A DNA stretch of 64,000 nucleotides, taken from NCBI GenBank assembly GCA_002774365.1, contig PEYM01000148.1:692-64691 (forward strand), written 5' to 3'. This document shows, piece by piece, positions 23,042 through 51,664 of this stretch. This stretch comes from Candidatus Saganbacteria bacterium CG08_land_8_20_14_0_20_45_16 (GTDB lineage: Bacteria > Margulisbacteria > WOR-1 > O2-12-FULL-45-9). The notes below the pieces were generated by a model that was not told where the DNA came from, did not search any database, and was given only the letters and a program-made list of their open reading frames with translations. Both the position numbers and the translations under genes were made by a program. Numbering within the stretch: the first letter of the stretch is position 1; every line of letters begins with the position of its first letter.

Positions 23042-24890
23042 TTTTCTTGTTTTATTGCTTGTTCTTATTGGGGCCATTTTGCTGACTAATAGCTGTGGCC
23101 TTTTTAGCCCGTCGACCACAAATCAAGAAACAACGACCACTGCGGCTGCCAGCACAACGATTGCTGGGGCAACAACAAGTACTACTATGGCTATTGGATT
23201 GACAACAACTACTACCACTACAAATACCAGTGCCAGCACTACGACACTACCTTCTCCCAGTACTACGAGCACAACCACAAGTACCACGATATCCACCACC
23301 ACGACCAGCACCACAACTACGATACTCCCTTCTCCCAGTAGTACGAGTACAACCACAAGTACCACGATATCCACTGCCACGACCAGCACCACGACTACTA
23401 CTGTGGTTGGAGTTACAACTACGACAATAATCACCTCAACAACAACCACTACTATTGCTGAGCCAACTAACTTGAGGGGGACGTCGAGTCTAACTGGGGT
23501 AACATTGTTTTGGGATGCTGTTGTTGGTGCTCATTCTTATAATTTGTATTGGTCAAATACTTCTGGGGTGACCAAGACCAACGGAACAAAAATTGCGGAT
23601 GTGACCAGCCCATATATTCATAATAATTTAGTAAATGGGCGTGCGTATTATTATGTAGTAACTGGTGTGGCCGTAGATAACAGGGAAAGCCGAGAGTCAG
23701 CGGAGTTTGTGGTCGTGCCGCAAGCAGTTGGCGCGCTTGATGAAAGTTTTAATGCTGATGGAGTGGTTATTTATAATGGTTTGTCAGCTTGGGGTACCGA
23801 CGTAACTGAATCAGCCTCAGGGAACCTTTATGTGTCTGGTTCCATTGGTCTTGATCTAGCTTTGCTGGCTTTTGCTGAGAATGGAGAGCCCCTTCACACC
23901 TTTGGCAGTGATGGGGTGGTACGAAAAGATATTGCCGGTAGTTTTGATGATGGGAGAGCGCTTATCTTTGATCAGTCTGGTCGATTATTGGTGGCTGGCT
24001 ATGGTCTTATCGCAACGAAAACGTCTACTGCTGTTTTGCTAAGATATGATGATAGCGGCCATCTTGATACAAGTTTTGGTATTAGCGGCCTGGCTACTTT
24101 TGGTGCTAGTTCTTATACTTATAATGGTTGGGAGGGCTTGGCCCTGGATAGCGCTGGACGCATTTTTGCGGGAGGTTATTATAGCCAGAGCGAATTAACG
24201 AGTAGGGAAGGAACAATTGCTTGTTACAATGATGATGGCTGGCTGGATTTGTCCTTTGATGGTACTGGTTTTGTAACTTATGGAGAGGATAATAAACATG
24301 ATTATTGCCAGGCAGTTGCGGTCAACAGCTCTGGCCAGGTCTTGGCTTGTGGCACTGTGGGTAAGGAAACACAGGATGTTGCCTTGCTAAGATATGAGGC
24401 CTCTGGTGTTATCGATGAAACTTTTGATGTGGCAGGGCTTTTTTCGTATGATTTTGGCCACCGAAATGACTTGGGCAGGGCCTTGGTGCTTGATAATTCT
24501 GGCAGGATATTGTTGTTGGGCTTTTACCGGGGCAGTTATGGCAAGATGGACACTTTTGTGATGCGTTTGTTAAACGATGGAGTAGCGGACCCTGCTTTTA
24601 GCGTTATTTCTTTGGCTTCTTCTACCTTTGACATTGAGGGTGATTTCTTGGCTTTGGATAAGGCGGGTAAGATTCTCGTGGCTGGTAGGTATGGCAACGA
24701 TATTTTTCTAAGACGTTATGATAGTAATGGCCAACTCGATACGTTATTTGGCGATAATGGGCAGGTGCTTTTTGACCATAATTTAGGGATTGATAGCTGT
24801 ATAGGAGGATTGGTTGACCATCAAGGTCGAATAGTTTTGGTAGGGTCTGTTAATGCTGGTAATGGGTTGCTGTTGCTTCGGTATAAGTAA
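23031..24890 (+). CDS. Secreted lipoprotein: Thr/Ser-rich mucin-like linker, FN3 domain, and tandem delta-60-type beta-propeller repeats
   Basis: Signal peptide ending LLTNSCG. About 110 aa are T/S-rich, including two 26-aa tandem repeats. An FN3-like segment (YNLYWSNTSG...RAYYYVVTGV) follows. Then come roughly 8 repeats of about 50 aa with a FxxDGxx...D..G(K/R)ILxxG pattern (delta-60 repeat family). Confidence 0.55.
   Translation: MKNNFLVLLLVLIGAILLTNSCGLFSPSTTNQETTTTAAASTTIAGATTSTTMAIGLTTTTTTTNTSASTTTLPSPSTTSTTTSTTISTTTTSTTTTILPSPSSTSTTTSTTISTATTSTTTTTVVGVTTTTIITSTTTTTIAEPTNLRGTSSLTGVTLFWDAVVGAHSYNLYWSNTSGVTKTNGTKIADVTSPYIHNNLVNGRAYYYVVTGVAVDNRESRESAEFVVVPQAVGALDESFNADGVVIYNGLSAWGTDVTESASGNLYVSGSIGLDLALLAFAENGEPLHTFGSDGVVRKDIAGSFDDGRALIFDQSGRLLVAGYGLIATKTSTAVLLRYDDSGHLDTSFGISGLATFGASSYTYNGWEGLALDSAGRIFAGGYYSQSELTSREGTIACYNDDGWLDLSFDGTGFVTYGEDNKHDYCQAVAVNSSGQVLACGTVGKETQDVALLRYEASGVIDETFDVAGLFSYDFGHRNDLGRALVLDNSGRILLLGFYRGSYGKMDTFVMRLLNDGVADPAFSVISLASSTFDIEGDFLALDKAGKILVAGRYGNDIFLRRYDSNGQLDTLFGDNGQVLFDHNLGIDSCIGGLVDHQGRIVLVGSVNAGNGLLLLRYK
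23247..23402 (+). repeat. Perfectly phased 78-bp x2 tandem repeat encoding LPSPS(T/S)TSTTTSTTIST(T/A)TTSTTTT(I/T)
   Basis: The units 23247-23324 and 23325-23402 are about 88% identical at DNA level, in frame within the 23031 CDS. Confidence 0.8.
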
Positions 24891-24931: not shown

Positions 24932-24961
24932 TTGACTTCCTGTTCAGTAAAACGCTACAAT
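24932..24961 (+). promoter_or_regulatory. Candidate sigma70-type promoter (TTGACT-18 nt-TACAAT) in the 162-bp gap upstream of the glycosylation island
   Basis: TTGACT at 24932-24937 and TACAAT at 24956-24961. Next CDS starts at 25053 with RBS AAGGAGAG. Confidence 0.3.
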
Positions 24962-25052: not shown

Positions 25053-25856
25053 TTGATGAAAAAACTATTGATATTTGGGTTGGTCCTGTTTTGTTTCTCC
25101 AAGGTTGCTTTGGCTTCTTATATTACTTTGCAAACTTCTGTCACGACCAAAATTGAGGCTAGCAGCCTTAAGGTTTTGGTGGCAGTGGAGAATAAAGGTG
25201 ACGAATCAGCTTATAATGTTCAGGCAGAAATTAGGGCTTTGGGCACTAAGGTCTTGGCTAAGAGAGCTTCAGAAGTTGCGATTAATGGTCGTTATGAGGC
25301 TTATGAAGAGCTCAATCTTGATCTGGCAAAACCAGGTGAATATCCGCTCGTTGTCGTCATGCACTATGCCGACGCTAACCAGTACCCTTTTTCCGCCTTG
25401 ACCTGCCAAACCTTTAATTATCGAGCGCAATCTGTGCCGGCTGAGCTCTTTGGCAAGCTGACCTCAGATAAATTTTGGGACAAGGGCAGGGTGTTTTTGA
25501 CCTTAAAAAATTTGTCAGAAAGCGATTTGACGCTCAAGGTTTTACTGGTCGGTCCGCAAGAACTTAATTTCCCAGGAGACAAAACGCTTGCTTTGGCTGG
25601 GAAAGGGACGGCCAAGGTTAATTTTGAGGTGGGCAATTTCTCCGCGCTTTCTGGCAGTACCTATCAAATCTTTGCCTTGGCAGAATATGATCAGGCTGGC
25701 CGACATCAGACAATTATTACCCAGGGGACGGTGCGCCTGGTCCAAGAAAGCGTGTTCTTGGGCCTAAAGTACTCTTATTTAGTGGCCTTGCTAATTGGCT
25801 TGGTTTTGGTCTTTATTTTTGTCCAGTTTGGCTTACCGCTCTTAAATAAAAAATAG
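25053..25856 (+). CDS. Secreted protein with two CARDB/DUF11-like Ig-fold repeats and a C-terminal TM anchor
   Basis: Signal peptide. Two segments resembling CARDB (KVLVAVENKGDESAYNVQAEI; RVFLTLKNLSESDLTLKVLL). Hydrophobic C-terminal helix LVALLIGLVLVFIFVQFGL. Confidence 0.4.
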   Translation: MMKKLLIFGLVLFCFSKVALASYITLQTSVTTKIEASSLKVLVAVENKGDESAYNVQAEIRALGTKVLAKRASEVAINGRYEAYEELNLDLAKPGEYPLVVVMHYADANQYPFSALTCQTFNYRAQSVPAELFGKLTSDKFWDKGRVFLTLKNLSESDLTLKVLLVGPQELNFPGDKTLALAGKGTAKVNFEVGNFSALSGSTYQIFALAEYDQAGRHQTIITQGTVRLVQESVFLGLKYSYLVALLIGLVLVFIFVQFGLPLLNKK

Positions 25857-25873
25857 CTTGATTAATAATTAAA

Positions 25874-27922
25874 GTGAAAAATCATACATTAATTGCTAGC
25901 CTAATCTTTGGCCTAATATTTATTTTTTTCTTTAGTTTTTTTGCCCCTGGACTGATTTTTGCTAAGACTTCAACCACAGGTGGAGATACGATCTCTCATT
26001 TCCCCACCGCTGTTTATTTAAAAAATGTTTTGTTGCCCACTGGTAATATTATGGGTTGGGACCAGGGCAATTATGCCGGCTATCCGCTTTTTTATCATTA
26101 TTTTCCTTTGACTTTTATTGTTATGGCTGTGCTTAGTTTTATTATGCCCATTGAGATAGCTTTTAAGATTGGGACAATTTTAGGGACGTTCCTTTTGCCG
26201 GTTTGTACCTACTTTGCCCTGCGCGCCATGAAATATTCTTTTCCTATTCCCTTGCTCAGTGCTTGTTTTACCTTGCCGTTTCTTTTTATGGAAGCAAATT
26301 CAATGTGGGGCGGCAATATCCCAAGCACTTTGGCTGGCGAGTCCTCTTATAGCTTTAGCTTTGCTTTGATGATCTTGTTTTTTGGCACGCTTTATGCTGG
26401 GATTAAAGATCAGAAATGGGTTGTGTCTAATTCTTTGTTGCTATTTGGCATTGGCTTAAGCCATGGCTTTACTTTTGTTTTTATTGGAGTGATTGCCCTC
26501 TTTTTTCTGTTTACTAAAAAAGATTTTGTGCGCAATCTGATCTATCTTTTCAAGGCCTTTAGTCTGGCTGTCTTGCTCTTGGGTTTTTGGTTTATCCCGT
26601 TCTTGGGTAATATTCCGTATGTTATTAGTTATGTTTCTAAGTGGTATGTTGATTCGATCTTCAAAATTATTCCGCCGATTCTAATGCCTTTCTGGGGCTT
26701 GAGTTTTGTGGCTTTATTCCTTAATCTGTTTGACCGGCGGACTGCTTACTTTATTCATGTGGTGGTGGCGAGTTTTATTTTGTATTGGCTAGCGCCAAAT
26801 ATCGGCATGCTTGATATTCGCTTTGTCCCGTTCATCCAGTTTTATCTGACAATTTTTGGGGCAACTGTGATCCTGGTCTTTTTGACTAAAATCAAAAATA
26901 AAGAGCTTTTGCCTTTTATTGTTTTTCTGGCAGTTACTTTGTGGGTGCTGCCTCATGTTACATATATTAAAGGGTGGATCAAATGGAATTACGAGGGCTT
27001 GGAAACTAAGTCCAGCTGGCCCTTGCTCCAAAAAATTCATTATCATTTGTCCGAGACAAAGGTGGGGCGAGTGGTTTACGAACATTCGCCCAAACATAAT
27101 ATCTTTGGCAGTGAACGGATCTTTGAAAACCTGTCTAATTACGCGGGCAGGAACACCTTAGAAGGCTTATATATGCAGTCTTCGATTAGTGCTCCTTTTG
27201 TGTTTTATATCCAGTCAGAGGTGTCAAAGCTTCATTCTGGTCCGTTCCCTCAATATAAATATTCTTATCTTAATTTGCCAGCAGCCCTGCCGCACCTAAA
27301 GCTTTTTAATGTTACTCAGTATATTGTCCGCAGCCCAGAAGCCAAGCAAGCAATTAAGAAAATACCTCAGCTTAAGTTGGAATGGAGCCTTGATGATTAT
27401 GAGATTTACCGGCTGACGAACAATGATGGGCATTATGTCGTTTTGCTCAAGAACGAGCCCGTCCTTTTTCAAACTAATGACTGGAAGCAAGATTTTTACG
27501 CCTGGTTCACGAATTTAGACGACTTGGAGATTCCCTTGGTTTACATTAAACATCCGACCGCTCAAGATCTAAAAAAATTCCCCTTGCGCAGTCATGACCT
27601 AGCGGCTTTGCCTAGGGTGGCGCTTCCTGATCAGCAGCCAGAGATCACAGAAAAGCTGCTCCCCCAGGAAATTGATTTTACCACCAACTTGATCGGTCGG
27701 CCGCATTTGATCAAGGTCTCATATCATCCCAACTGGCAGGTGGTAGGGGCGGACAAGATCTATTTGGTCTCACCTTCGTTTATGCTGGTCTACCCTAAAC
27801 AAGCCCACGTCCGCCTTTATTTTGGCAAAACAATCTACAATTATATTGGTGAAGTTATGAGCATTTTAGGGTTACTAATCCTTTTCTCTTCTGTTATAAT
27901 TAAGCGTAAAGATGCGCGATAA
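25874..27922 (+). CDS. Large polytopic membrane protein, putative GT-C-fold glycosyltransferase (YfhO/GtrC-like)
   Basis: 682 aa. About 12 N-terminal TM helices, a ~300-aa extracytoplasmic domain and a final TM. Directly followed by (and overlapping) a GtrB/CsbB-like GT2 gene, mirroring csbB-yfhO / gtrB-gtrC pairs. Confidence 0.45.
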   Translation: MKNHTLIASLIFGLIFIFFFSFFAPGLIFAKTSTTGGDTISHFPTAVYLKNVLLPTGNIMGWDQGNYAGYPLFYHYFPLTFIVMAVLSFIMPIEIAFKIGTILGTFLLPVCTYFALRAMKYSFPIPLLSACFTLPFLFMEANSMWGGNIPSTLAGESSYSFSFALMILFFGTLYAGIKDQKWVVSNSLLLFGIGLSHGFTFVFIGVIALFFLFTKKDFVRNLIYLFKAFSLAVLLLGFWFIPFLGNIPYVISYVSKWYVDSIFKIIPPILMPFWGLSFVALFLNLFDRRTAYFIHVVVASFILYWLAPNIGMLDIRFVPFIQFYLTIFGATVILVFLTKIKNKELLPFIVFLAVTLWVLPHVTYIKGWIKWNYEGLETKSSWPLLQKIHYHLSETKVGRVVYEHSPKHNIFGSERIFENLSNYAGRNTLEGLYMQSSISAPFVFYIQSEVSKLHSGPFPQYKYSYLNLPAALPHLKLFNVTQYIVRSPEAKQAIKKIPQLKLEWSLDDYEIYRLTNNDGHYVVLLKNEPVLFQTNDWKQDFYAWFTNLDDLEIPLVYIKHPTAQDLKKFPLRSHDLAALPRVALPDQQPEITEKLLPQEIDFTTNLIGRPHLIKVSYHPNWQVVGADKIYLVSPSFMLVYPKQAHVRLYFGKTIYNYIGEVMSILGLLILFSSVIIKRKDAR

Positions 27923-28847
27923 ACCTAAGCTTTCAATTGTGCTCCCTGTTTGCAACGAAGAGCAGAGCCTGCCTCAGCTTTATCTGCGTTTGGCCGCGGT
28001 GTTAAAAGAGCTTGGTCTTGACTATGAAATTATTTTTATTGATGATGGGAGCCATGATGCCTCCTGGCTTGAGCTGACCAAATTACATCAGACCGATCAC
28101 CGGGTCAAGGTTTTGAGCTTTTCGCGAAATTTTGGCCATATGGCTGCCTTAGCGGCTGGGCTAGACCAGGCTGCGGGTGACGTGGTCATTACTATGGATG
28201 CTGATTTGCAGCACCCGCCTGAGCTTATCCCTCAACTGCTGAATGAGTGGGAGGCTGGGGCAGAGGTGGTAAGTACCTTGCGCCAGGAGAGCCGAAGGGC
28301 TGGCTATTTTAAAAACTTAAGCGCTAGATTTTTTTACTGGTTACTTAATCGGATTGCCAAGATCAATCTGCCGGCCAATGCTGCTGATTTTCGTTTGCTC
28401 GATCGTAAGGTTGTTGAGACCTTAAAAACGATCAAGGAGCGGTCCCGTTTTTTGCGCGGTTTGATCAGTTGGATTGGCTATCAACAGGCTTTTGTGGCTT
28501 ATCAAGCTGAGCCGCGTTTCGCGGGCAAAACTAAATATTCGTTTTCACGCATGTTTTCATTTGCCATAGATGGGATTACGGCTTTCTCTGCCTTTCCTTT
28601 GCGTTTGGCCACTTATCTAGGGTTGTCGATTGCTTTTTTTAGCTTTATTTATATTGTCTATGCTATTTTTGTGAAACTTTTCACTAACAATGCCATGGCT
28701 GGATGGGCTTCGGTCTTGATCGTGGTCCTTTTTATTGGTGGGGTCCAGCTGATCTTCTTAGGGATAATTGGCGAATATTTGAGCCGGGTCTTTGATGAAA
28801 CTAAGGGTAGACCATTTTATATTGTAGCTAAAAAATTGGGATGGTAG
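27912..28847 (+). CDS. GT2 polyprenyl-phosphate sugar transferase (GtrB/CsbB/DPM1-like)
   Basis: 311 aa. GT-A motifs (IVLPVCNEE, IFIDDGSHD, MDADLQHPP) plus two C-terminal TM helices typical of GtrB/ArnC. Confidence 0.8.
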   Translation: MRDKPKLSIVLPVCNEEQSLPQLYLRLAAVLKELGLDYEIIFIDDGSHDASWLELTKLHQTDHRVKVLSFSRNFGHMAALAAGLDQAAGDVVITMDADLQHPPELIPQLLNEWEAGAEVVSTLRQESRRAGYFKNLSARFFYWLLNRIAKINLPANAADFRLLDRKVVETLKTIKERSRFLRGLISWIGYQQAFVAYQAEPRFAGKTKYSFSRMFSFAIDGITAFSAFPLRLATYLGLSIAFFSFIYIVYAIFVKLFTNNAMAGWASVLIVVLFIGGVQLIFLGIIGEYLSRVFDETKGRPFYIVAKKLGW

Positions 28848-31414
28848 CCAAGATGACCGAACCGTCTTTAGCCGGAACAGTTTCAAAGTACCAAGAACTA
28901 GCGAGTAAGATCGTTAGTTTTTTTAAAGGATTAAAATATCCCAAAATTATCTTTGGTTTGCTGATTTTGGCTGTTATTTATTACGTCTTTGTCTTTTCAG
29001 CTTATTCTATTTTGCTTCAGGAAGTATTTTATACTCAAGCCTTTGATTCTGGCATTGATGACCAAGGGATCTGGCTGATCTCGCACTGGCTTAACCCTTT
29101 GGTAACTGTACGGGGGCTTAATATTTTTGGTGACTCCATAACTTTTTACCATATATTCATCGCGCCGTTCTTTTGGCTTTGGAACAATATTAATTTGCTT
29201 TATATTATTCAGAGTATTTTTATTGCCTTGGGCGCGATCCCGCTTTTTGTTTATGCTCGGCAAAAATTAGGAAGCAATTTTTTAAGCTTAGTGGTAGCGG
29301 TCTCTTTTTTGTTATACCCCGCTTTGCAAAACCTAAACCTTGATCAATATCATTCTGAGGCGATCGCGGTCTTTTTTATTGTTTTGACTATCTTTTTTTT
29401 GCTGAAAAAAAACTTCTCCTTGTTTTATGCTTTTTTTATTTTTAGTTTGATTGGTAAGGATGAAATCGCGGTCACTGGCGCGTTTATTGGGCTTTTTTTG
29501 TTGTTATTTGATAAAGAAAAAAGGCATGGTTTAATTATCTTTGGGCTGAGCGTTGGCTGGTACCTGCTGTGTTCCAGGGTGATGATGCCGCTTTTTAATG
29601 GGGTAGGGGTTTTTAGCCACCAGCCGGTAACTTATTCCCACTGGTATCGAGGCTTAATGGACAATCTGTTAAACCCTGGTTTTTACTGGCAAAATTTTCT
29701 GCATCCAGAGAGCCTGGGTTATTATTTAGGGCTTTTCTTGCCTTTGGCTTTTATTCCTTTGCTTAGTCCTAGGCTGATGTTTTTGCTTTTTCCGGCTGTG
29801 GCGGTCAATGTTTTAAGCGGCACCGGGTATTTGCGCTCAATCCATTACCATTATAATTACATTCAAGCTGCAGTGATCTTCTTTGCTTTGATCGAAGGGC
29901 TGGCCCTGATCAAGAACAGTCGTTGGCTTAGGAAAATAGATGGCACTTACAAGGTGGCAGCATTAGGTGTTATTGTCGTAGTTTTTTCCCTGGGTTGTAA
30001 TAATTTGTGGAGTGCCTTGCCGCTCAACCGGCATTTGACCATGTTGACTCAAAAATGGGAGCATTTAAAGTCGCGTGAGATCAGGGTAAAACAAAAAGCA
30101 TTGAGCTTGGTGCCGCCAGGGGTCAAAGTTGCGGCCTCTTATTCCTTGGTCCCGCATTTGACCCATCGCCAAGAGATATATATGTTCCCCAACCCCTTTA
30201 AGTCTGTTTTGTGGGGACAGTGGTTTAAGGAGGGGGAGGGGGCCCCGCCAGCCGAGGGCCATGTTGATTATGTGGTGATCGATTTTACCAATCATGCTAA
30301 AGAAGAAAAAATGATTATTAATTATCTTTGGGCGTCGCCTTATTTTAAGACGGTTTTTCAAGATGGACCGCTTTTGGTGTTGGCCCGGACCAATAATTGC
30401 TTAGCCCAGGAATATGGGGCCAACTATACCCTTTATGACCTGACTAGCCAGGTCAGCTTATTTGATGATTTTGCCAAGGTGCTCAAGGTTAAGAAGCAGG
30501 GCAGGCTGAGCATGTTTTATTTTCCAGATTCTAATTACTATTTGCGCAATCTTTTGGGTGAGGAGATCCTGCTTGTTGACAAAAAGTTTGCCTTGGAGAT
30601 CTCGGGCTATCTTTATTTGCCAGAAACAGCTAACTATATCTTTAGGATAAAAAGTGAGGCGCAAGTTTTACTTGAGATCGACAACCGCTTTGCTGACGCG
30701 GCCTCGGATTCCTTGAATCTACGAGAGGGCTTTCATAAATATAAGATTAAATATATAAATACAGGCCAGCGCTACGACCTAAAGATATCTCTACTTGGGC
30801 CTGATGGCAAGGAAATGATCATTCCTGATAAACATTTGCTGCGCGACTATCAGCCAGCTTTTTTTGCCAAATTTGAGCAAGCTGACCGCCAGCAAAGGGC
30901 GGAGAGAGAAAGTTTCGCGAAAAAACAGACCAATCTTGTTGTTGACGGCGGGTTTGAGGATGTTTTAGGGGACAAGCCAAAAAAATGGCAGCTGGAAAAG
31001 TGGCAAGAGGAGGATTCTCTCTGTTTTTATCAAGTGACTGCTAAAACTAAAGCTGAAGGGAAATTTTCCGCTCTGATCGATCAGCGCCAAGGCTTGGCTG
31101 ATTCCCGCTGGGTTCAAGAGATCGCGGTTGAGCCAGACACGGAGTATGTTTTATCTGGCTGGATCAAGACCCGTGGGGTTTTGAGCAAGGGAGCAGGGGC
31201 ATATATAGCAGCCGAAAATACTAACCTTAAAACTGAGGAGCTTTTTGGCACCAATGATTGGCGCTATTTTGAAGCTAAAGGGAAAACTGGTTATGAGCAA
31301 GAGAAAATTAAATTTACGTGCCGGCTGGGTGATTACGGCCGGCCCAATATTGGCCAAGCATATTTTGATGGGATATCTTTAAAGCGGGTTTTGCCTGATC
31401 AGGGACATTTCTAG
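28841..31414 (+). CDS. DUF2079-family polytopic membrane protein fused to a C-terminal CBM4_9-like carbohydrate-binding domain
   Basis: 857 aa. The N-terminal ~520 aa are multi-TM and DUF2079-like (GIDDQGIWLISHW..., ALGAIPLFVYA). The C-terminal ~170 aa match the CBM4_9 pattern (NLVVDGGFED...W...TEYVLSGWIKT...FDGISLKRV). Confidence 0.55.
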   Translation: MVAKMTEPSLAGTVSKYQELASKIVSFFKGLKYPKIIFGLLILAVIYYVFVFSAYSILLQEVFYTQAFDSGIDDQGIWLISHWLNPLVTVRGLNIFGDSITFYHIFIAPFFWLWNNINLLYIIQSIFIALGAIPLFVYARQKLGSNFLSLVVAVSFLLYPALQNLNLDQYHSEAIAVFFIVLTIFFLLKKNFSLFYAFFIFSLIGKDEIAVTGAFIGLFLLLFDKEKRHGLIIFGLSVGWYLLCSRVMMPLFNGVGVFSHQPVTYSHWYRGLMDNLLNPGFYWQNFLHPESLGYYLGLFLPLAFIPLLSPRLMFLLFPAVAVNVLSGTGYLRSIHYHYNYIQAAVIFFALIEGLALIKNSRWLRKIDGTYKVAALGVIVVVFSLGCNNLWSALPLNRHLTMLTQKWEHLKSREIRVKQKALSLVPPGVKVAASYSLVPHLTHRQEIYMFPNPFKSVLWGQWFKEGEGAPPAEGHVDYVVIDFTNHAKEEKMIINYLWASPYFKTVFQDGPLLVLARTNNCLAQEYGANYTLYDLTSQVSLFDDFAKVLKVKKQGRLSMFYFPDSNYYLRNLLGEEILLVDKKFALEISGYLYLPETANYIFRIKSEAQVLLEIDNRFADAASDSLNLREGFHKYKIKYINTGQRYDLKISLLGPDGKEMIIPDKHLLRDYQPAFFAKFEQADRQQRAERESFAKKQTNLVVDGGFEDVLGDKPKKWQLEKWQEEDSLCFYQVTAKTKAEGKFSALIDQRQGLADSRWVQEIAVEPDTEYVLSGWIKTRGVLSKGAGAYIAAENTNLKTEELFGTNDWRYFEAKGKTGYEQEKIKFTCRLGDYGRPNIGQAYFDGISLKRVLPDQGHF

Positions 31415-31418
31415 ATCG

Positions 31419-32864
31419 ATGAAAGAGAAAACAGGTGGATTAAGCTTTTGGTTTTGTTTCTTTTTTATTTTTCTTTTTGCTTTATTTTTTTTCTTTTCCT
31501 TTGCCCACATCAGTTTGACCGCTTATGAAAGCCTGAGTTTTCCTTTTGCTGAGGATCAGGCGATGTTTCATCAATCTTTTTGGAATTTGACGCATAATGG
31601 TTCACTGGCCATTACAACAGCCTTAAATAATTATAATAATGTTTTTGGCATGCACTTTACCCCGATTTTGTTTTTCCTGGTGCCGATCTATCTTTTGAAT
31701 CAAAGCCCTGTCTCCCTTATATTGATAAGCATTATGAGCTTAGCTTTATCGGGGATTTTTATCTTTTTATCTACCCATAAACTTGCTGACAACCCTTGGC
31801 TAGCGGGAGCTGTGGTTTTTCTCTATTTCACTTATTTGCCGCTGACCTTTTTAGCTTCTCAGGGCTTTCGTTATCTAATCATAGGCCTTTTCTTTTTGTC
31901 TGGGGCTGTCTTTTTTTATCTGAGTAAAAGGTTTTGGCCAATGTTTTTATTTCTGATTTTAACCTGCCTGTGCCGAGAAGATATCTCGTTGGTCGTGATT
32001 GGTTTTTCTCTCTTAGCCTTGTTTGATAAACGCTCAGCTCGCTGGCGGTATTGGCCGGCCATTTTGGGCCTTTCTTATTTTATTCTTGTGGTCTCTTGGA
32101 TAATGCCTAACTTAAATGGTACGGGGGGGCAAGGGGGCTTGGGCTTTGCCGCTTATAGCGCCTTTGGTGATACCCCATTGAAAATCTTAATCTCTATGGT
32201 GACGAATCTCCCATTGCTCTATCAGATGCTGATTATGCCTCATCATTTTATATTTTTTAGCGAGCTTTTCTCGCCACTTTATTATTTGCCGCTGCTCTCT
32301 CCTTGCTGGGTGTTACTTCCCTTTGCTTATTGGCTGATCTTGCTTTTGTCGTCAGTTAGCGCGCATGCCAATGCGCAATATTGGTATGTAGCACCGCTTC
32401 TTCCTTTTATTTTTATTGCCTTAGCAGCAGTGTTAAAGAAGATTTTGGTTTGGGGTGACAGAAGGTGGCGCTTGGGAACATTGGGGGTGAGCCTGATTTT
32501 AGTCTTGCTTATGCACTCGGCTTATCTTGGGCCAGGAGGACGTAGATTATTTAATGGTTTCCACGCAAGATCAAACCATCAGTTAGAGAGAGTGCAGAAG
32601 TTGTTTGACCAAATTCCCAGGGGAGCTTCAGTCATGACCCAGGCCAATTATCTGCCTTATCTCTCGAGTCGTAGGGTCATTGTTCTGCCACGGCCTGATC
32701 CAGCAACTGACTATCTGGTTGTTGATGCCACTGATTTTTGGTGGCCTTTGCCTAAACCAGAAATTGACAAATTCCGCATTGAAATGATTGTCTCTGGCCG
32801 ATATAAATTGTTAGATGAACTTGAAGGGATTTCTCTTTATAAACGACAAGAAGGTAAAGAATGA
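31419..32864 (+). CDS. DUF2079-family polytopic membrane protein (paralog, no lectin domain)
   Basis: 481 aa, multi-TM. Motifs parallel the previous gene (AEDQAMFHQSFWNL...FGMHFTPILF). Confidence 0.5.
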   Translation: MKEKTGGLSFWFCFFFIFLFALFFFFSFAHISLTAYESLSFPFAEDQAMFHQSFWNLTHNGSLAITTALNNYNNVFGMHFTPILFFLVPIYLLNQSPVSLILISIMSLALSGIFIFLSTHKLADNPWLAGAVVFLYFTYLPLTFLASQGFRYLIIGLFFLSGAVFFYLSKRFWPMFLFLILTCLCREDISLVVIGFSLLALFDKRSARWRYWPAILGLSYFILVVSWIMPNLNGTGGQGGLGFAAYSAFGDTPLKILISMVTNLPLLYQMLIMPHHFIFFSELFSPLYYLPLLSPCWVLLPFAYWLILLLSSVSAHANAQYWYVAPLLPFIFIALAAVLKKILVWGDRRWRLGTLGVSLILVLLMHSAYLGPGGRRLFNGFHARSNHQLERVQKLFDQIPRGASVMTQANYLPYLSSRRVIVLPRPDPATDYLVVDATDFWWPLPKPEIDKFRIEMIVSGRYKLLDELEGISLYKRQEGKE

Positions 32865-34621
32865 TAGCAAGGGTAAAAAGCTTTTTTCTAATAGTAGATA
32901 TGCGTTTTCTTGTTTTTTATGGGTTGTTTTTTTTGTTTCCGCACCCCTTGGCTAAAGACATTAATTCAATAGTTTTTCTGAGCTTAACTTATATTTCAGT
33001 AATAATTTTATTTAAGCGATTTACGGATTTGACTAATTTTGAGATTCTGTTTTATGTTTTACTGGCTATTGCTTTTTCTGGGCTTCATCTTCTTCACACC
33101 CAAGAATATGGTCCAACTGGTTTAGAAGAAAATATGAAGCGGGTCATTAATGGACCTTGGCGCTATCGTATTCTGGTTCCAGAGTTGATGAATTTTTGCC
33201 AATGGTTATTTAGAGTAGGGCAAATGGGCCTTAGGGCTGGCTTTCGCTTCTTTTTCCTTTCTCAGGTTTTTTTGACTAGCTATCTCATGCTCAAAAACGT
33301 CTTAAAGGCGAAAAGAGAAGTTTCGTTTTTTCTCCCTTTGCTCTATTTGTTTATGATCCCCTTTTCTTGGTTTCTTTTGTATGAGACTGATTTTCCGGAG
33401 ATTTATTTTTCGACTTTGTTGCTAATAGCGATTGTTTCTGGCCGGCGGCCACTTATCTTTCTCTCTTTTATCCTCGGGCTGCTTAATCGCAACAGTATTA
33501 TCTTTGGCCTCTTTTTCTATTTTTTTTACACTATTTTTTCTCTGCCGTTAAGCTTTGCTGATCTAAAGAAGTTATTAATTGAGAAGCGCAGAGACTTTTA
33601 TTTGATGGGTGGTTTAGTGTTGAGCATACTTGTTTTTAGGGTGGTGACAATTTGGCTTTATGGGGAGACATATTTTTCCGAGGACAAATGGCTAGAGAAT
33701 TTGCGTTATTGGCAATACTATTGGCACACTTTTTGGTCTGGTGCTAATTGGGTTGTCAATTGTTTTTCTGTTGGGGACCGCTGTGTTTCCTCTTTTCCTC
33801 GCTTGCTTTCTTTTGCCGGCGGGATATATTTGCTCTTGTTTTTATTTTGGAAAAAATTGGACAAAAAGTTTGCTTTTTCGTTCTTGGGTGCGGGGATTGT
33901 CTTTGGCTTTTTCTTTTTTAGGTATTGCAACCTTTTTGAGACCAGAGGGGCCTTTGTGCTCCTCCCATATTTTATTTATGCCTTGGGCCAAATGTTTTCT
34001 GGAGAGCAAAGGAATTGGCAGAGCAAGGATTTTTATCGGTTTTTTTGTTTCTTAGTGATTGCAGTTGTAATTGTTACTATCCCTCTTTTGGCTGAGGGGA
34101 TTTTGGTAAATTATAAAGCGGCGCGTACGCCTGTCTTTTCTCAGTTTGACTTTAACAATGGTTCTTTGATCGGTGTTAGGAAAGTTTTAGTGGCAGGTGA
34201 TTTTACGGTTGGCTTAACCAGTCGCGAGTCTGAGCCAGGAGACTGTCTTTTGGTGGCTGGAGCTGGCTGTGGCTATGCGGCAATTAATTTGCCGGTTAAA
34301 TCTAGGACAGAGTATCTTTTGTCTGGAGATTTCAAGACCAAAAATTTGGCTCTCAAGGATAAGAAAGTCGGTTTTGGGGTCTTTTATCTCCTTGAATTTA
34401 AGTACCGCAAATACTTTGCTAATGATGATAACAGTGATGATACGATCTCGCACCAGCATCTAGGTGATTTGCAAGGGACAACCGATTGGCACAGGGTGGA
34501 AGATCGCTTTAGGACAGGCGATGATACCCAGATGGTCAGGATTGCAATCGGTTTTGGTAATCAGGGGTGGGGTTCTGGAGAAATCTGGGCTGATAACATT
34601 ACTTTAAAAGAACTAAAATAG
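32861..34621 (+). CDS. Polytopic membrane protein with a C-terminal CBM4_9-like beta-sandwich domain
   Basis: 586 aa. About 10 TM helices. The C-terminal ~170 aa (TEYLLSGDFKT...GTTDWHRVEDRF...GEIWADNITLKEL) have the same architecture as the 28841 C-terminus. Confidence 0.45.
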   Translation: MIARVKSFFLIVDMRFLVFYGLFFLFPHPLAKDINSIVFLSLTYISVIILFKRFTDLTNFEILFYVLLAIAFSGLHLLHTQEYGPTGLEENMKRVINGPWRYRILVPELMNFCQWLFRVGQMGLRAGFRFFFLSQVFLTSYLMLKNVLKAKREVSFFLPLLYLFMIPFSWFLLYETDFPEIYFSTLLLIAIVSGRRPLIFLSFILGLLNRNSIIFGLFFYFFYTIFSLPLSFADLKKLLIEKRRDFYLMGGLVLSILVFRVVTIWLYGETYFSEDKWLENLRYWQYYWHTFWSGANWVVNCFSVGDRCVSSFPRLLSFAGGIYLLLFLFWKKLDKKFAFSFLGAGIVFGFFFFRYCNLFETRGAFVLLPYFIYALGQMFSGEQRNWQSKDFYRFFCFLVIAVVIVTIPLLAEGILVNYKAARTPVFSQFDFNNGSLIGVRKVLVAGDFTVGLTSRESEPGDCLLVAGAGCGYAAINLPVKSRTEYLLSGDFKTKNLALKDKKVGFGVFYLLEFKYRKYFANDDNSDDTISHQHLGDLQGTTDWHRVEDRFRTGDDTQMVRIAIGFGNQGWGSGEIWADNITLKELK

Positions 34622-34627
34622 GACATT

Positions 34628-35839
34628 ATGCAGGCAAACAAAATCGCAGTGGTGGGGGGCGGGATAAGCGGGCTGGTTACAGCTTACTATCTATTAAAAA
34701 AGGGTTATCAAGTTACCCTCTTTGAAAAAGAAGCAGAGCTTGGTGGTTTAGCCTCTACCTTCCCAGTTAAGGGGACCCGCCTGGAAAAGTTTTACCACCA
34801 CTTTTTTGCCCAAGATACGCTAGCCCTTGAATTGATAGAAGAATTGGGCCTTAAGGATAAATTTTATTGGGCTTTTCCTCGGATGGGCTTTTTTAGCAAG
34901 GGGACAACTTACCCATTTACCACGCCACTAGACCTTTTAGCTTTTCCCCCTCTCTCCTTACCAGAGCGGCTCAAGTTTGGCCTTTTTAGTTTCAAGGTTA
35001 AGCAAGAAACAGATTGGCAGAAACTGGAAACAAAAACAGCTAAGGAGTGGTTGATTGAAAATTTGGGTACAAATATTTATCAAGAGGTTTGGCAGCCGCT
35101 CTTGCGGGCAAAGTTTGCTGAACACGCCGACAAAATCCCTGCTTTTTGGGTTTGGGGGAGGCTCAAAGCAAGAGGAAAATCTCGCTCAGCTTTTGGCTGG
35201 CGGGAAAAACTTGGTTATTTAAAAGGGAGCTATCAAGTCTTAATTGACGCGTTGGCCGCTAAGATTACAGGGCTCGGCGGAGCAATCAAACTCGGCCAAG
35301 AGCTTAAAACCTTTCCCCTCCCTGGCTTTGATCGGACAATTTTGACTATCCCTCAAGTTAGCCAGGACTTTGGTCTTAAATACCTGGGCAATATTTGTTT
35401 GATCATTAAGACCAAACAGCGTTTGTCAAATTATTATTGGCTTAATTTGGCAGATAATAGTATTCCCTTTTGTGTGATTGTTGAGCATAACAATGCTTTT
35501 GATTCCCCGCTTTATCAGGGGGAGCGTTTTCTCTTTCTCTCTAGCTACCTTGACCACCAGAGCGATTTTTGGCAGCTTACCGACCAAGAGCTTTTGACCA
35601 CTTATCTAGCTGGGTTACAGAAGATCTACCCAGCTTTTAAGCGTGAAGCACTCCTTGATTATTATGTTTTTCGAGAAAAGTTTGCGCAACCCTTGCCAAC
35701 TTTGGGCTATTCAAAGAAAGTCCCTCCTTTCAAAATTAACGAAAAACTTTATCTGGTCTCTAATATGCAAATCTATCCAGAAGATCGCGGGATCAATGAT
35801 ACAATTAAATTAATATGCAAATTTATCGAACAGTTCTAA
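34628..35839 (+). CDS. FAD/NAD(P)-binding flavoprotein (amine-oxidase / UDP-galactopyranose-mutase-like)
   Basis: N-terminal dinucleotide fold VVGGGISGLVTAYYL...TLFEKEAELGGLAST. Embedded among glycosyltransferase genes. Confidence 0.6.
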   Translation: MQANKIAVVGGGISGLVTAYYLLKKGYQVTLFEKEAELGGLASTFPVKGTRLEKFYHHFFAQDTLALELIEELGLKDKFYWAFPRMGFFSKGTTYPFTTPLDLLAFPPLSLPERLKFGLFSFKVKQETDWQKLETKTAKEWLIENLGTNIYQEVWQPLLRAKFAEHADKIPAFWVWGRLKARGKSRSAFGWREKLGYLKGSYQVLIDALAAKITGLGGAIKLGQELKTFPLPGFDRTILTIPQVSQDFGLKYLGNICLIIKTKQRLSNYYWLNLADNSIPFCVIVEHNNAFDSPLYQGERFLFLSSYLDHQSDFWQLTDQELLTTYLAGLQKIYPAFKREALLDYYVFREKFAQPLPTLGYSKKVPPFKINEKLYLVSNMQIYPEDRGINDTIKLICKFIEQF

Positions 35840-37251
35840 CTTTAGCCTTAATTTTAGTAGTGCAGGCGGTGCTTTTTCAGCCATATTTAAGCGAGCCGTT
35901 TGAACGCGATGAGGGGGCTTATGCTTACATTGCCCAGCGTCTGTCGTCGGGCGAGCTGCCATATCGAGATAGTTACGATCATAAGCCACCAATGATCTAT
36001 TTTATTTACGCGTCAGTCTTTAAGTTCTTTGGGACCTCAATGGCCGCGATCAGGTCTTTTACCTTGCTTGTTTCGCTGTTAACAACCTTAGCCGTCTTTT
36101 TCTTGGCCTGGCTTATTCTCGGTCGCTTTGGGGCAATTGTTTCTGCTTTGCTTTACGCTTTTTATGCTGGGAATCCTTACATTCAAGGGACTTCTGCTAA
36201 TACTGAGACCTTTATGGTCTTACCAATGGTCCTGTCTTTGGCTTTTTTCTTATTGGCTTTGCGGCGAGAGCAGAAACTCGGCTGGCTCTTTTTAGCTGGT
36301 CTATGTTCTGGCTTAGCCGTGATGATCAAGCAGGTTGCCCTGCTTAATTTTTTGGTTATTCTTGGTTATTACGTTTTTATTTGTCTGCGCCAGCGCAAGG
36401 ATTGGTCAGGGGTTGCGGCGCTACTAATTGGCTTAGCCGTTGTGCCAATGCTGACAGTTGGATATTTTTTCCTTAAGGATGCCTGGTCAGCCTTGCTTCA
36501 TGGCTACCTTTTAGAAAACCTGCTTTATGTCTCGCGCAAGGTTTGGGTCTGGCCGAGGCTTTGGCTGGTGTTACAAGAACTTGGGCTTTTGTGGGGCCTA
36601 TCAGCTCTGGCAATTATGCTTATCTGGTTTAACGAAAAAGAGGATAAATTTAAAATTATTCTAGCTTGGGCCCTGGCCTCGGGTTTAGGGGTTTTTATGG
36701 GACGAGCCTTTTACGGCCACTATTTTATTCAAGTGGTGCCAGCGCTGGCAATTTTAGCGGGCTACAGCCTCTTAAAAATTGCTGGTTCAAATTGGCGCTT
36801 GGTGCTTTTGGCCTTTTTAGCCCTGATCTTTTCCATGGACCTCTTTAGTCGGATCTCTTTTGGCTTATTATCACCTGAACTGATCTCGCAAAAAAAATAT
36901 GGGATCAACAATTTTGTCGTGGCAGGGCAGGTTGCGGAGTTTATCAAGCAAAAAACCCTGCCCAAAGACAGGCTCTTTATTTGGGGGGCAGAGCCCGAGG
37001 TTTATTTTTATAGTCAACGCGCGGCCGCCTCGCACTATATTTATTATTATCCATTACTATACAAAGATAAGAAATCTCAACAAGCCAGGCTTGCTCTGCT
37101 GACAGAATTAAAAGAGGCACCGCCCGAGTATATAATCTGGGTTGAGCCGAGGGTTGTTTATGGTCCACTTTTGAATTATGTTAAAGCTGGTTATAATTAT
37201 CTGGCTAGTTTTGGCCGCTGGCAAATTTGGCGGCGAAAGAGGATTAAGTGA
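35815..37251 (+). CDS. ArnT/PMT-family GT-C glycosyltransferase (GT39/GT83-like)
   Basis: 478 aa. First periplasmic loop has a DEGAY acidic motif and a YDHKPPM motif typical of ArnT/PMT enzymes. About 11 TM helices. Confidence 0.65.
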   Translation: MQIYRTVLTLALILVVQAVLFQPYLSEPFERDEGAYAYIAQRLSSGELPYRDSYDHKPPMIYFIYASVFKFFGTSMAAIRSFTLLVSLLTTLAVFFLAWLILGRFGAIVSALLYAFYAGNPYIQGTSANTETFMVLPMVLSLAFFLLALRREQKLGWLFLAGLCSGLAVMIKQVALLNFLVILGYYVFICLRQRKDWSGVAALLIGLAVVPMLTVGYFFLKDAWSALLHGYLLENLLYVSRKVWVWPRLWLVLQELGLLWGLSALAIMLIWFNEKEDKFKIILAWALASGLGVFMGRAFYGHYFIQVVPALAILAGYSLLKIAGSNWRLVLLAFLALIFSMDLFSRISFGLLSPELISQKKYGINNFVVAGQVAEFIKQKTLPKDRLFIWGAEPEVYFYSQRAAASHYIYYYPLLYKDKKSQQARLALLTELKEAPPEYIIWVEPRVVYGPLLNYVKAGYNYLASFGRWQIWRRKRIK

Positions 37252-37991
37252 ACAAAACGATCGTGGTCATGCCGGCGTACAATGCGGCCAAGACCTTGGC
37301 TAAGACCTTTCAGGACATCCCCAAAGACAAGGTCGCTGAAATTATTTTGGGCGATGATTGCTCAGAGGACCAAACTATCTTGATCGCCCAATCATTGGGG
37401 CTTGAGGTCCTTAAGACCCCGTGCAATCTTGGCTACGGCGGCAACCAAAAAATGCTTTACCAAGAGGCGCTGCGACGCGGGGCCACCATTGTGGTCCTGC
37501 TTCACCCAGATTGGCAATATGACGCTACCAAAATTCCTGAGCTGATCGCACCGATTGCGGCTGGCGAAAAAGATGTTATGTTAGGTTCAAGGATACTTGG
37601 CGGCCGGGCCGGCACGCTAGCTGGCGGCATGCCGCTTTATAAGTACCTGTCCAATCGTTTTCTGACCTTGGTCGAGAATATGACCTTTAACTTCTCTTTG
37701 TCTGAGCTGCATACTGGCTTTCGCGCTTTTAGTGCTCCGGTGCTAAAAAAGGTCAGCTATGAGCTTAATTCCAATGACTTTGTTTTTGATTCTGAGATGT
37801 TAGCCCAGATTGCCGTTCAAAAATTTAGGGTGGGAGAGGTGCCTGTGCCGTGCCGTTATTTTCCAGAAGCTTCAGAAATTAATTTTTGGCGCAGTAGTTG
37901 TTATGGTCTCCAGACCTTGCTGGTCTGTCTGAAGTTCATGTTGCATAAGCTAAAAATAAAAGAGTTGGAGCAATTCATTGCAAAGTGTTAA
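37248..37991 (+). CDS. GT2 glycosyltransferase (dolichyl/polyprenyl-phosphate sugar synthase-like, soluble)
   Basis: 247 aa. GT-A motifs VVMPAYNAAKTL, ILGDDCSED and a DxD-like LHPDWQYD. No TM segments. Confidence 0.8.
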   Translation: MNKTIVVMPAYNAAKTLAKTFQDIPKDKVAEIILGDDCSEDQTILIAQSLGLEVLKTPCNLGYGGNQKMLYQEALRRGATIVVLLHPDWQYDATKIPELIAPIAAGEKDVMLGSRILGGRAGTLAGGMPLYKYLSNRFLTLVENMTFNFSLSELHTGFRAFSAPVLKKVSYELNSNDFVFDSEMLAQIAVQKFRVGEVPVPCRYFPEASEINFWRSSCYGLQTLLVCLKFMLHKLKIKELEQFIAKC

Positions 37992-47476: not shown

Positions 47477-48355
47477 ATGCCTATCTTGGTCAATATTTTT
47501 AAGACCCTGCGGCCTAATCAATGGACAAAAAATTTCTTTATCTTTGCTGGTCTAGTTTTCTCCCTTAAGTTTTTTAATCCTTGGTTTCTCTATAAAGTTA
47601 TTGAGGCTTTCTTGGTCTTTTGCGCTTTGGCTAGCTCGGTCTATATTATTAATGATTTGGCTGATGTTGCAGGAGACCGGTTGCATCCAAAAAAGAAATT
47701 TAGACCAATTGCCAGTGGCGCGCTTAGCCCGCCTTTAGCTTTAACCATTGCTTTACTTCTAATTATTGGTTCGCTTGCGGCTGCTTTTTATTTGGATCTG
47801 GCTTTTGCCTTGGTGGCAGTAACCTATTTGGTCTTAATGATTTGTTACACTTTTTGGTTGCGCAGCATAGTGATCCTAGATGTGTTTACCATTGCGCTTG
47901 GTTTTGTGCTACGGGCTATTGCTGGGGTGGTGGTTATTGGCGTGGTTTTGTCACCTTGGTTGATCATTTGTACGCTTTTATTGTCCCTTTTTATTGCTCT
48001 GGGCAAAAGGCGGCATGAGTTGATCACTTTGGCCAGTGCTGCTAGTCACCGCAAGATCCTTGATGAATATAATCCCCAGCTTTTGGACCAGCTAATCTCA
48101 ATTTCTGCTGGTGCGACGATTGTCAGCTATGCTTTGTACTCCCTCTGGCCAGACACGGTGGCTAAATTCCAGACCCAAAACCTTATTTATACCTTGCCGT
48201 TTGTGGTCTACGGGATCTTTCGTTATCTTTACTTAATTTACAAAAAAGAGCGCGGCGGCCGGCCAGAAATGATCTTGTTAACTGATTTCCCTTTGATCTT
48301 AGGCTTGTTGCTTTGGGTTGTTACTGCTGGGGCCCTGCTTTACTGGGCTAGATAA
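47477..48355 (+). CDS. UbiA-superfamily prenyl-phosphate transferase (decaprenyl-phosphate phosphoribosyltransferase-like)
   Basis: 292 aa, about 8 TM helices, first Asp-rich motif NDLADVAGD (NDxxDxxxD). Similar in size and architecture to DPPR-synthase-type UbiA homologs. Confidence 0.65.
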
Positions 48356-51598: not shown

Positions 51599-51610
51599 AC
51601 CAGCAGTATT

Positions 51611-51619
51611 TGTTATAAT
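51611..51619 (+). promoter_or_regulatory. Extended -10 element (TGtTATAAT) upstream of the SDR epimerase gene
   Basis: TGTTATAAT at 51611-51619. RBS AAGGAGG at 51653-51659, start ATG 51665. Confidence 0.3.
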
Positions 51620-51664
51620 ATGATTGTTGCGTGCTTATCTTGAACGCGTCTTAAGGAGGTAAAA

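Follow-up and report, generated by a model that had tools for sequence, protein, structure and literature searches.

Membrane glycosyltransferases of the GT-C fold that carry carbohydrate-binding modules (CBMs) have been described from mycobacterial arabinan synthesis and from one enterobacterial O-antigen system. The CBMs of EmbC and AftD bind arabinan, and that of EmbC is needed for the full-length product (PMC11127046; bioRxiv 10.1101/2019.12.22.885152), while the CBM of ORF12 of Citrobacter youngae O1, the founder of GT136, binds the unmodified O-polysaccharide (PMC11127046). In streptococci, a GtrB/PgfS-type glycosyltransferase of family 2 (GT2) and a GT-C enzyme glycosylate Ser/Thr-rich intrinsically disordered regions (IDRs) of substrates whose genes lie in the pgf cluster (bioRxiv 10.1101/2024.05.05.592596).

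Here we describe a probable glycosylation locus in a 64-kb stretch of DNA (the window; contig PEYM01000148.1) from a metagenome-assembled genome (MAG) of Candidatus Saganbacteria. This lineage is presumably the sister of Cyanobacteria. The nine open reading frames (ORFs) of the locus are lettered A to I, and three of them, D, E and F (beginning at 28841, 31419 and 32861), encode translationally coupled polytopic membrane proteins. We consider it likely that all three are GT-C-fold glycosyltransferases acting at the periplasmic face of the cytoplasmic membrane, and that the locus uses lipid-linked sugars to build or decorate a glycan of the cell surface. What is new is the assignment of DUF2079 as a GT-C family with a defined Asp, the tandem of PA14 and CBM on such an enzyme, and a rare family, that of ORF F, whose fusion to a CBM is seen only in this organism's sequence. 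The three ORFs stand exactly at the coordinates given in a preliminary description of this DNA, on the plus strand, with lengths of 857, 481 and 586 amino acids (aa). That description had missed the PA14 domain (aa ~525-665) that links the membrane module of D to its CBM, and also the larger locus with its five GT-C-fold proteins. The three ORFs and their domains, including transmembrane (TM) segments, are as follows.

28841..31414, plus strand: ORF D, 857 aa, putative DUF2079 GT-C-fold membrane glycosyltransferase with periplasmic alpha/beta, PA14 and CBM domains
28841..30025, plus strand: ORF D, aa 1-395, predicted GT-C module of about 11 TM helices, whose first periplasmic loop carries the invariant Asp69 (motif AFDSGIDDQGIW)
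30026..30400, plus strand: ORF D, aa 396-520, alpha/beta domain on the periplasmic side, part of the DUF2079 module (from conservation and modelled secondary structure)
30413..30835, plus strand: ORF D, aa ~525-665, probable PA14 lectin-type beta-barrel
30929..31390, plus strand: ORF D, aa ~697-850, carbohydrate-binding module, a beta-sandwich of CBM4_9-like type
31419..32864, plus strand: ORF E, 481 aa, second GT-C paralogue of DUF2079, lacking a lectin domain (Pfam DUF2079, E 1e-42)
32861..34621, plus strand: ORF F, 586 aa, GT-C-fold family outside Pfam and NCBIfam, with a CBM4_9-like domain
32861..34015, plus strand: ORF F, aa 1-385, predicted GT-C-fold membrane domain with the motifs PWRYRILxPE, TDFPE, LNRxT and NETR
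34043..34120, plus strand: ORF F, aa ~395-420, extra TM helix carrying the C-terminal domain to the periplasm (from hydropathy, model and positive-inside rule)
34142..34618, plus strand: ORF F, aa 428-586, CBM4_9-like domain, a divergent homologue of the D module (hhalign)

The fusion of a CBM to a membrane enzyme of this kind had been called unusual, which does not hold in view of the precedents: this design is already that of EmbA/B/C, of AftD, which has three CBMs, and of ORF12, the founder of GT136 (PMC11127046; bioRxiv 10.1101/2019.12.22.885152), and we also found PMT-family GT-C proteins with the same CBM type or with PA14. The likeness to the Emb/Aft enzymes (GT53 / DUF3367) is one of architecture and fold only, with no Pfam hits to Arabinose_trans or DUF3367. 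D and E belong instead to DUF2079, F lies outside known families, D adds a PA14 domain, and the host is a diderm saganbacterium, not an actinobacterium. As to a link with Emb-type donors, the polyprenyl-phosphate phosphoribosyltransferase of the window lies 13 kb away with a GT-C protein of its own. The design of a GT-C enzyme with an acceptor-binding CBM would extend beyond mycobacterial arabinan and one enterobacterial O-antigen system to Saganbacteria/Margulisbacteria.

The DUF2079 Proteins ORF D and ORF E

Both ORF D (Pfam DUF2079, PF09852; E 7e-52, 177.4 bits against a gathering threshold of 28.2 bits) and ORF E (146.9 bits) are clear members of DUF2079, as the preliminary description had proposed. 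The two are related to each other (BLASTP E 4e-15, 24% identity over 435 aa), and D46 of E aligns with D69 of D. An AlphaFold model of ORF D, built from 44 homologues, reached a predicted local distance difference test score (pLDDT) of 93.2 and a predicted template modelling score (pTM) of 0.88. Its polytopic module superposes on solved GT-C enzymes, with Pmt4 as the top match; PMTs themselves carry a lectin-like (MIR) domain. Asp69 is invariant in 44/44 DUF2079 sequences and lies eight residues past the first TM helix, the established position of the catalytic acid in GT-C enzymes (restated in PMC11127046). On the strength of the model, we assign DUF2079 to the GT-C fold and place its invariant Asp in the first predicted periplasmic loop. 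This is a new assignment, which gives a structural and putative functional identity to a widespread family; our literature searches found no functional study of DUF2079 / PF09852, and a search for Saganbacteria glycosyltransferases likewise returned nothing.

The number of helices, estimated from hydropathy and models, is about 11 in D and about 13 in F, within the range of 10-13 given earlier. The short loops on the two predicted sides of the membrane differ in their content of Lys and Arg (11 versus ~3 in D, 13 versus 1 in F); by the positive-inside rule, the lectin domains, the conserved motifs and the first large loop are therefore predicted to face outward. Beyond the membrane module of D, the alpha/beta domain contains an invariant R443 and near-invariant H439 and L440, and the Pfam DUF2079 match runs to aa 463. 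The region at aa ~525-665 scores 18.8 bits with Pfam PA14 (PF07691), under the 24-bit threshold, and is considered a probable PA14 domain from matches of the modelled structure to RsgI3 (15.6) and MpIBP (15.4). Many DUF2079 members bear PA14 and/or CBM extensions. The ORF D protein matches, at 100% identity, a hypothetical protein from isolate CG08_land_8_20_14_0_20_45, and an exact-sequence lookup among public contigs gave no record of it.

The Putative C-Terminal Carbohydrate-Binding Modules

The C-terminal domains of D and F share their motifs in the same order (TEYVLSGWIKT in D and TEYLLSGDFKT in F; TNDW and TTDW; GQAYFDGISLKRV and GEIWADNITLKEL), as had been noticed from the sequence, and they are homologous (BLASTP E 3e-6; hhalign profile-profile probability 99.15%, E 3.9e-19, 129 columns). 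Their proposed membership of CBM4_9 fared less evenly. Against the Pfam CBM_4_9 cutoff (PF02018, 25.9 bits) D scores 22.6 bits and F gives no hit, while several D orthologues and three of the ten sequences in the alignment of the F domain do match. Since the relatives match and the two domains themselves fall short, they are best termed divergent CBM4_9-like modules, that of F being the more divergent.

The family profile of the D domain matches 4d0q and CBM16 by sequence, and its modelled jelly-roll superposes on experimentally defined CBMs (CBM4/9/16/22/61/70-type), of which the nearest bind hyaluronan, porphyran, alginate and xylan. The F domain finds its closest relatives in modules that precede sulfatases and in part of a multi-CBM RHS protein; some relatives pass the Pfam thresholds for CBM_4_9 / CBM_4_9_1. 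Sulfatases often act on sulfated glycans. Compared with solved structures, the profile of the F domain gave weak matches, mostly to CBM-bearing enzymes (E 0.01-0.25).

ORF F, a Rare Membrane Family

ORF F matches no Pfam or NCBIfam family and, as the preliminary description implied, gives no DUF2079 hit; hence it is not a DUF2079 member. An exhaustive HMMER scan of 1.84 billion cluster representatives returned 21 matches in total, about nine of them to the membrane domain and the remainder to the C-terminal domain only. The near-complete membrane matches are stand-alone proteins of 385-456 aa, and the F-type family is carried by 2 of 185,579 species-representative genomes. The model of F was built from 11 sequences, all homologues of the membrane domain, which leaves the C-terminal domain without alignment depth; pLDDT is mostly 75-96 in the membrane part and below 40 in the C-terminal domain. 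In this model the membrane part has a GT-C fold, which identifies a second, very rare membrane family (the type of ORF 32861) as GT-C-like. This fold agrees with a weak, co-linear match of the F profile to DUF2079 (78% probability, E 2e-5) and with a hit of one family member to ALG10, which falls below threshold. The F membrane profile had no hit among PDB sequences, and single-sequence hhalign of F against ORFs B, H and E found nothing.

The preliminary suggestion that the TM domains might have a GT-C fold is thus supported for D, by model and Asp69, and for F by its membrane model. In F, residues R103, D177, N209, E360 and R362, among others, are invariant in the family, and all lie in predicted periplasmic loops. 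The best candidate for the catalytic acid is E82, which is acidic in about eight of nine sequences, and the invariant D177 and E360 stand in later loops; judging from conservation, these three are tentative candidates. The extra helix that precedes the CBM is the strongest hydropathy peak of the protein (2.72) and is modelled as a long helix (388-422). The relatives P0081 and P0088 show a comparable one.

Gene Content of the Locus

The trio sits within the operon-like block of nine genes, A to I, to which functions were given by Pfam and NCBIfam. ORFs C and D overlap by 7 nt, D and E are separated by 4 nt, and E and F overlap by 4 nt, all on the plus strand, a close packing consistent with a single operon. 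The other six genes are as follows.

25053..25856, plus strand: ORF A, 267 aa, signal peptide, CARDB-like beta-sandwich and C-terminal TM anchor (Pfam CARDB 17.3 bits, sub-threshold)
25874..27922, plus strand: ORF B, 682 aa, PTPS_related polytopic membrane protein (Pfam PF10131, E 6e-32)
27912..28847, plus strand: ORF C, 311 aa, GT2 of the GtrB/ArnC/PgfS type with two C-terminal TM helices (Pfam Glycos_transf_2, E 2e-33)
34628..35839, plus strand: ORF G, 403 aa, oxidoreductase dependent on flavin adenine dinucleotide (FAD), amine-oxidase / protoporphyrinogen-oxidase superfamily (NCBIfam PRK07233, 426 bits, cutoff 252)
35815..37251, plus strand: ORF H, 478 aa, PMT_2-family GT-C glycosyltransferase (Pfam PMT_2 E 3e-15, PMT E 5e-11)
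37248..37991, plus strand: ORF I, 247 aa, soluble GT2, PpgS / AglJ / Dpm1-like (Pfam Glycos_transf_2, E 9e-17)

By these assignments, the block likely encodes two polyprenyl-phosphate sugar synthases (C and I) and five GT-C-fold proteins (B, D, E, F and H); we take PTPS_related, the family of ORF B, to belong to the GT-C clan. ORF C, a likely producer of a lipid-linked sugar donor, matches NCBIfam PgfS (283.6 bits, cutoff 500) and ArnC (195 bits) over its full length, both below the equivalog cutoffs. ORF I gives sub-threshold scores with PpgS (71 bits) and AglJ (66 bits) and lies directly upstream of pilin genes. Two GT2 genes of the polyprenyl-phosphate type in the same operon lend indirect support to the use of lipid-linked donors.

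This gene content sharpens the comparison with described systems. The GT136 system resembles the locus in having a periplasmic GT-C enzyme with a C-terminal CBM that binds unmodified polysaccharide, together with a polyprenyl-charging partner (PMC11127046). Donor loading, however, appears to fall here to GT2s, as opposed to the UbiA/PRP domain of GT136, which depends on phosphoribosyl pyrophosphate (PRPP). A GtrB-like GT2 is encoded with GT-C proteins (ORF C; ORF I being PpgS/AglJ-like), as in the three-component GtrA/GtrB/Gtr type; the locus differs from that type and from GT136 in having five GT-C-fold genes, not one, and no flippase gene in the window. With Pgf and GtrB/PgtC2 it shares a GtrB/PgfS-type GT2, GT-C proteins and Ser/Thr-rich candidate substrates nearby. 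Eukaryotic and actinobacterial PMTs belong to the same comparison, Pmt4 being the best GT-C structural match of D. The Pgf GT-C proteins, however, are of the YfhO family and have no CBM or PA14, whereas those of the locus give no YfhO hit; in addition, the PgfS score of ORF C is below cutoff, and the Ser/Thr-rich neighbours are not kept in every related locus.

ORF A, with TM helices predicted from hydropathy at either end, opens the conserved core. A promoter-like site lies upstream of it at 24932-24961; promoter and terminator scans were otherwise uninformative, and an Rfam scan of the window found no family. ORF G showed weak matches in the PDB to protoporphyrinogen oxidase, phytoene desaturase and UDP-galactopyranose mutase. 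Embedded among GT-C genes, it could act on a lipid-linked sugar or on the polyprenol carrier.

Related Loci and Exchange of Lectin Modules

Comparison loci are numbered L001 to L014. The core A-B-C-D (CARDB-like, PTPS_related, GT2 and DUF2079-lectin) is kept in eight related loci, downstream of glyQS, and an ORF B-type gene is present in every related locus. An ORF A-sized protein is found in the matching position in L001, L002, L003 and L009-L012; homology to ORF A was recognised by eye in L001-L003 and by tblastn in L013. In this last and more distant locus, a GT9 gene and a gene for a TPR protein separate the A/B-like pair from an F-type gene, which lies two genes downstream of it. ORF A could be an acceptor, a chaperone or a subunit. 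In seven loci (the window, L001, L003 and L009-L012), a GT2 of ~230-247 aa, assigned to the ORF I kind by Pfam GT2 and size and not by direct comparison with ORF I, lies directly upstream of pilin genes. The locus, kept next to glyQS and pilus genes, is a concrete entry point to the envelope of these uncultured bacteria.

What lies between the core and the GT2/pilin flank varies: nothing in L003 and L012, H only in L009, a PMT_2 protein fused to PA14 on the opposite strand in L010, and E-G-H without F in L011, where the ORF G homologue adjoins the ORF E homologue. An ORF H-type gene is kept upstream of ORF I in L001, L009 and L011. The L010 gene (12501-14618, minus strand) encodes a 705-aa PMT_2-family GT-C protein with PA14 and takes the place of the window's E-H. 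L005 has D, an ORF E counterpart of 691 aa that bears a D-type CBM, and an F without CBM, and CBMs of the D/F type also occur on the PMT-family proteins P0051/P0055. This varied placement shows that lectin modules (PA14 and CBM) move between paralogues and are exchanged within one locus, and they form a natural set of variants for probing what each module contributes.

F-type genes lie within GT-C gene clusters in all six contexts found, and a recognised GT-C gene adjoins in five of the six: DUF2079 in the window, L005 and L014, GT87 in L006 and PMT_2 in L008. Two of these contexts are in MAGs labelled archaeal, a Woesearchaeota MAG (L008, 6207-8931) and a 'Methanosarcinales' bin (L006, 1182-3568). 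In both, the F-type gene is immediately upstream of the GT-C gene (PMT_2 and GT87, respectively), and the Woesearchaeota contig has aIF2-alpha and PAC2 neighbours.

Proposed Mechanism and Alternative Explanations

In the mechanism that we propose, the GT2s C (27912) and I (37248) would use nucleotide sugars to charge polyprenyl phosphate at the cytoplasmic face of the membrane, and the lipid-linked sugars would then be flipped across the membrane. There, the GT-C proteins B, D, E, F and H would each transfer a sugar to the acceptor by means of a conserved acidic residue that D (D69) and E (D46) carry in their first periplasmic loop. The periplasmic PA14 and CBM of D and the CBM of F would bind the glycan acceptor or product; because of the analogy to the CBMs of EmbC, AftD and GT136 ORF12, we suggest that this tethering concentrates the glycan near the active site and makes it more likely that one molecule receives several additions.

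Several observations weigh against this proposal. That the DUF2079 and F families are catalytic is suggested by sequences and models, and F has no strictly invariant acidic residue right after its first helix. The sub-threshold Pfam scores of both C-terminal domains count here as well, and for F the presumed CBM is assigned from sequence profiles in a region modelled at pLDDT below 40. The 64-kb window encodes no GtrA-like flippase, its sole small polytopic candidate being PlsY, although a flippase could be encoded elsewhere in the genome. Both GT2s fall under the equivalog cutoffs and so give no firm prediction of the sugars. Finally, the CBM of GT136 is dispensable for activity in vitro and in vivo in the conditions used (PMC11127046), and a CBM therefore need not imply processivity. 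Processive action, which the preliminary description had suggested, is possible and a reasonable analogy to EmbC; it is not implied.

The acceptor could instead be protein. Under this explanation, the enzymes would O-glycosylate Ser/Thr-rich disordered regions of surface lipoproteins (e.g., that encoded at 23031-24890) and/or the downstream type IV pilins, much like eukaryotic PMTs or the GtrB/PgtC2 and PgfS/PgfM1 systems of streptococci, and the lectin domains would sense sugars already installed and so promote dense, mucin-like glycosylation at many sites. The best NCBIfam match of ORF C is indeed PgfS, at 284 bits and over its full length, and a streptococcal enzyme pair of just this kind modifies Ser/Thr-rich IDRs (bioRxiv 10.1101/2024.05.05.592596). 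The putative lipoprotein upstream has an 80% Ser/Thr stretch, a similar poly-Thr lipoprotein occupies the same position in L001, pilin genes follow the locus in seven loci (the window and six relatives), and D resembles Pmt4. However, the PgfS score is far under the 500-bit cutoff, L002, L003 and L011 have no Ser/Thr-rich neighbours, the A-D core of L002 stands without pilin genes, and polysaccharide chains are the ligands of the CBM's nearest structural relatives. We regard a protein acceptor as possible, though not probable. Between polymer and glycoprotein the locus data favour neither firmly, and the nearest CBM structures support a polysaccharide by analogy. The proposal also presumes that the lectin domains bind sugars at all. 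The beta-sandwich and PA14 domains might be structural spacers, or binders of protein or cell wall that share the jelly-roll fold, and neither passes its Pfam threshold. We find this very doubtful, given that the family profile matches CBMs by sequence and that relatives of the F domain are attached to sulfatases and occur in multi-CBM proteins.

Two further explanations concern F. It may be a non-catalytic, GT-C-fold partner of the adjacent GT-C enzyme (E here, PMT_2 or GT87 elsewhere) to which it supplies an acceptor-binding CBM, in the manner of the heterodimers EmbA-EmbB and Pmt1-Pmt2 or of PIG-U and GAB1, which are non-catalytic subunits with a GT-C fold. The constant company of GT-C genes would fit, as would the missing invariant acid in the canonical post-first-helix position and the distribution of CBMs, with E lacking and F bearing one in the window and the reverse in L005, as if one CBM per pair sufficed. 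Adjacency is equally expected of enzymes for consecutive steps, however; L011 has an E homologue without F, and the invariant R103, D177, N209, E360 and R362 line the predicted periplasmic face as an active site would. On balance we think a purely accessory role unlikely. That ORF F is an assembly or frameshift artefact joining a 385-aa membrane gene to a small CBM gene is scarcely credible. In its favour, every other family member lacks a CBM, a T7 homopolymer lies in the linker at ~34040, and the full-length 586-aa product is absent from both large protein collections searched, while ORF D of the same MAG is present. The sole identical entry, a fragment of 272 aa, nevertheless spans the domain junction: it is the same gene, running off the end of a separate JGI contig of 1007 bp, with residues 315-586 at 100% identity, although the sample is possibly not independent. 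The fusion is thus not an artefact of this one assembly, and we rejected that explanation. Moreover, the frame is open throughout, the linker is a strong TM helix with the topology to export the CBM, and P0081 and P0088 share this helix.

Flanking Modules

A second compact glycosylation module lies at 47477-52702, between accB and recJ, and comprises a phosphoribosyltransferase, an oxidoreductase, a GT-C protein and an epimerase of the short-chain dehydrogenase/reductase (SDR) kind.

47477-48355: UbiA-type decaprenyl-phosphate phosphoribosyltransferase (NCBIfam NF008977, 293 bits, cutoff 234)
48355-49920: FAD oxidoreductase, PRK07208 family
49883-51598: sixth GT-C protein, PMT_2
51665-52702: SDR epimerase

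The module, which includes a transferase of its own, resembles a pathway for a polyprenyl-phospho-pentofuranose donor (Ribf/Araf/Xylf-type); its FAD enzyme and SDR might act in the manner of DprE1/DprE2. ORF G was considered as a paralogue of this FAD enzyme, a kinship that would have connected the locus with pentofuranose donors, and this was rejected as evidence, the two having only the N-terminal FAD-binding motif in common. UbiA and SDR genes occur at the same syntenic site in L004; L002 has neither. Co-occurrence of E/F with the UbiA-phosphoribosyltransferase/SDR module could be scored in three informative loci (both in the window and in L004/L005, neither in L002), which are too few, and a link of the locus to this module is only a lead. 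A more far-reaching picture can be drawn from it, of a lectin-guided, hypervariable surface-glycan cassette that varies from genome to genome in its GT-C enzymes (DUF2079, PMT_2 and the F family) and has interchangeable PA14 and CBM, in which E and F may use polyprenyl-phospho-pentofuranose from the module 13 kb downstream and F founds a new glycosyltransferase family. We consider this picture improbable; if true, it would mean Emb/Aft-like machinery for furanosyl glycans outside Actinobacteria, with type IV pilins or Ser/Thr-rich lipoproteins as its possible targets.

Immediately upstream of the locus, 23031-24890 encodes a secreted, putative lipoprotein (LLTNSC near the N-terminus), a candidate substrate for O-glycosylation. 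In a region of ~150 aa, Ser and Thr make up as much as 80% of a 60-aa segment, and DUF5122 beta-propeller repeats come after this region. The poly-Thr lipoprotein of L001 (5335-5907) is smaller. Downstream, a type IV pilus / pseudopilin operon (38004-44874) begins right after the GT2 at 37248 and contains four or five prepilin-like genes, along with the following.

40898-42559: PilM-like protein
43603-44874: PilQ-type secretin

The first pilin (38004-38585) has an odd Gly/Glu-rich tail (GTGEGEGEGAGEGGGGGGGGCGAH). At the far end of the window, positions 62001-64000 show a sharp shift in composition, with an AT skew of +0.27 versus about -0.1 elsewhere and a GC skew of 0.26; no Rfam family was found there.

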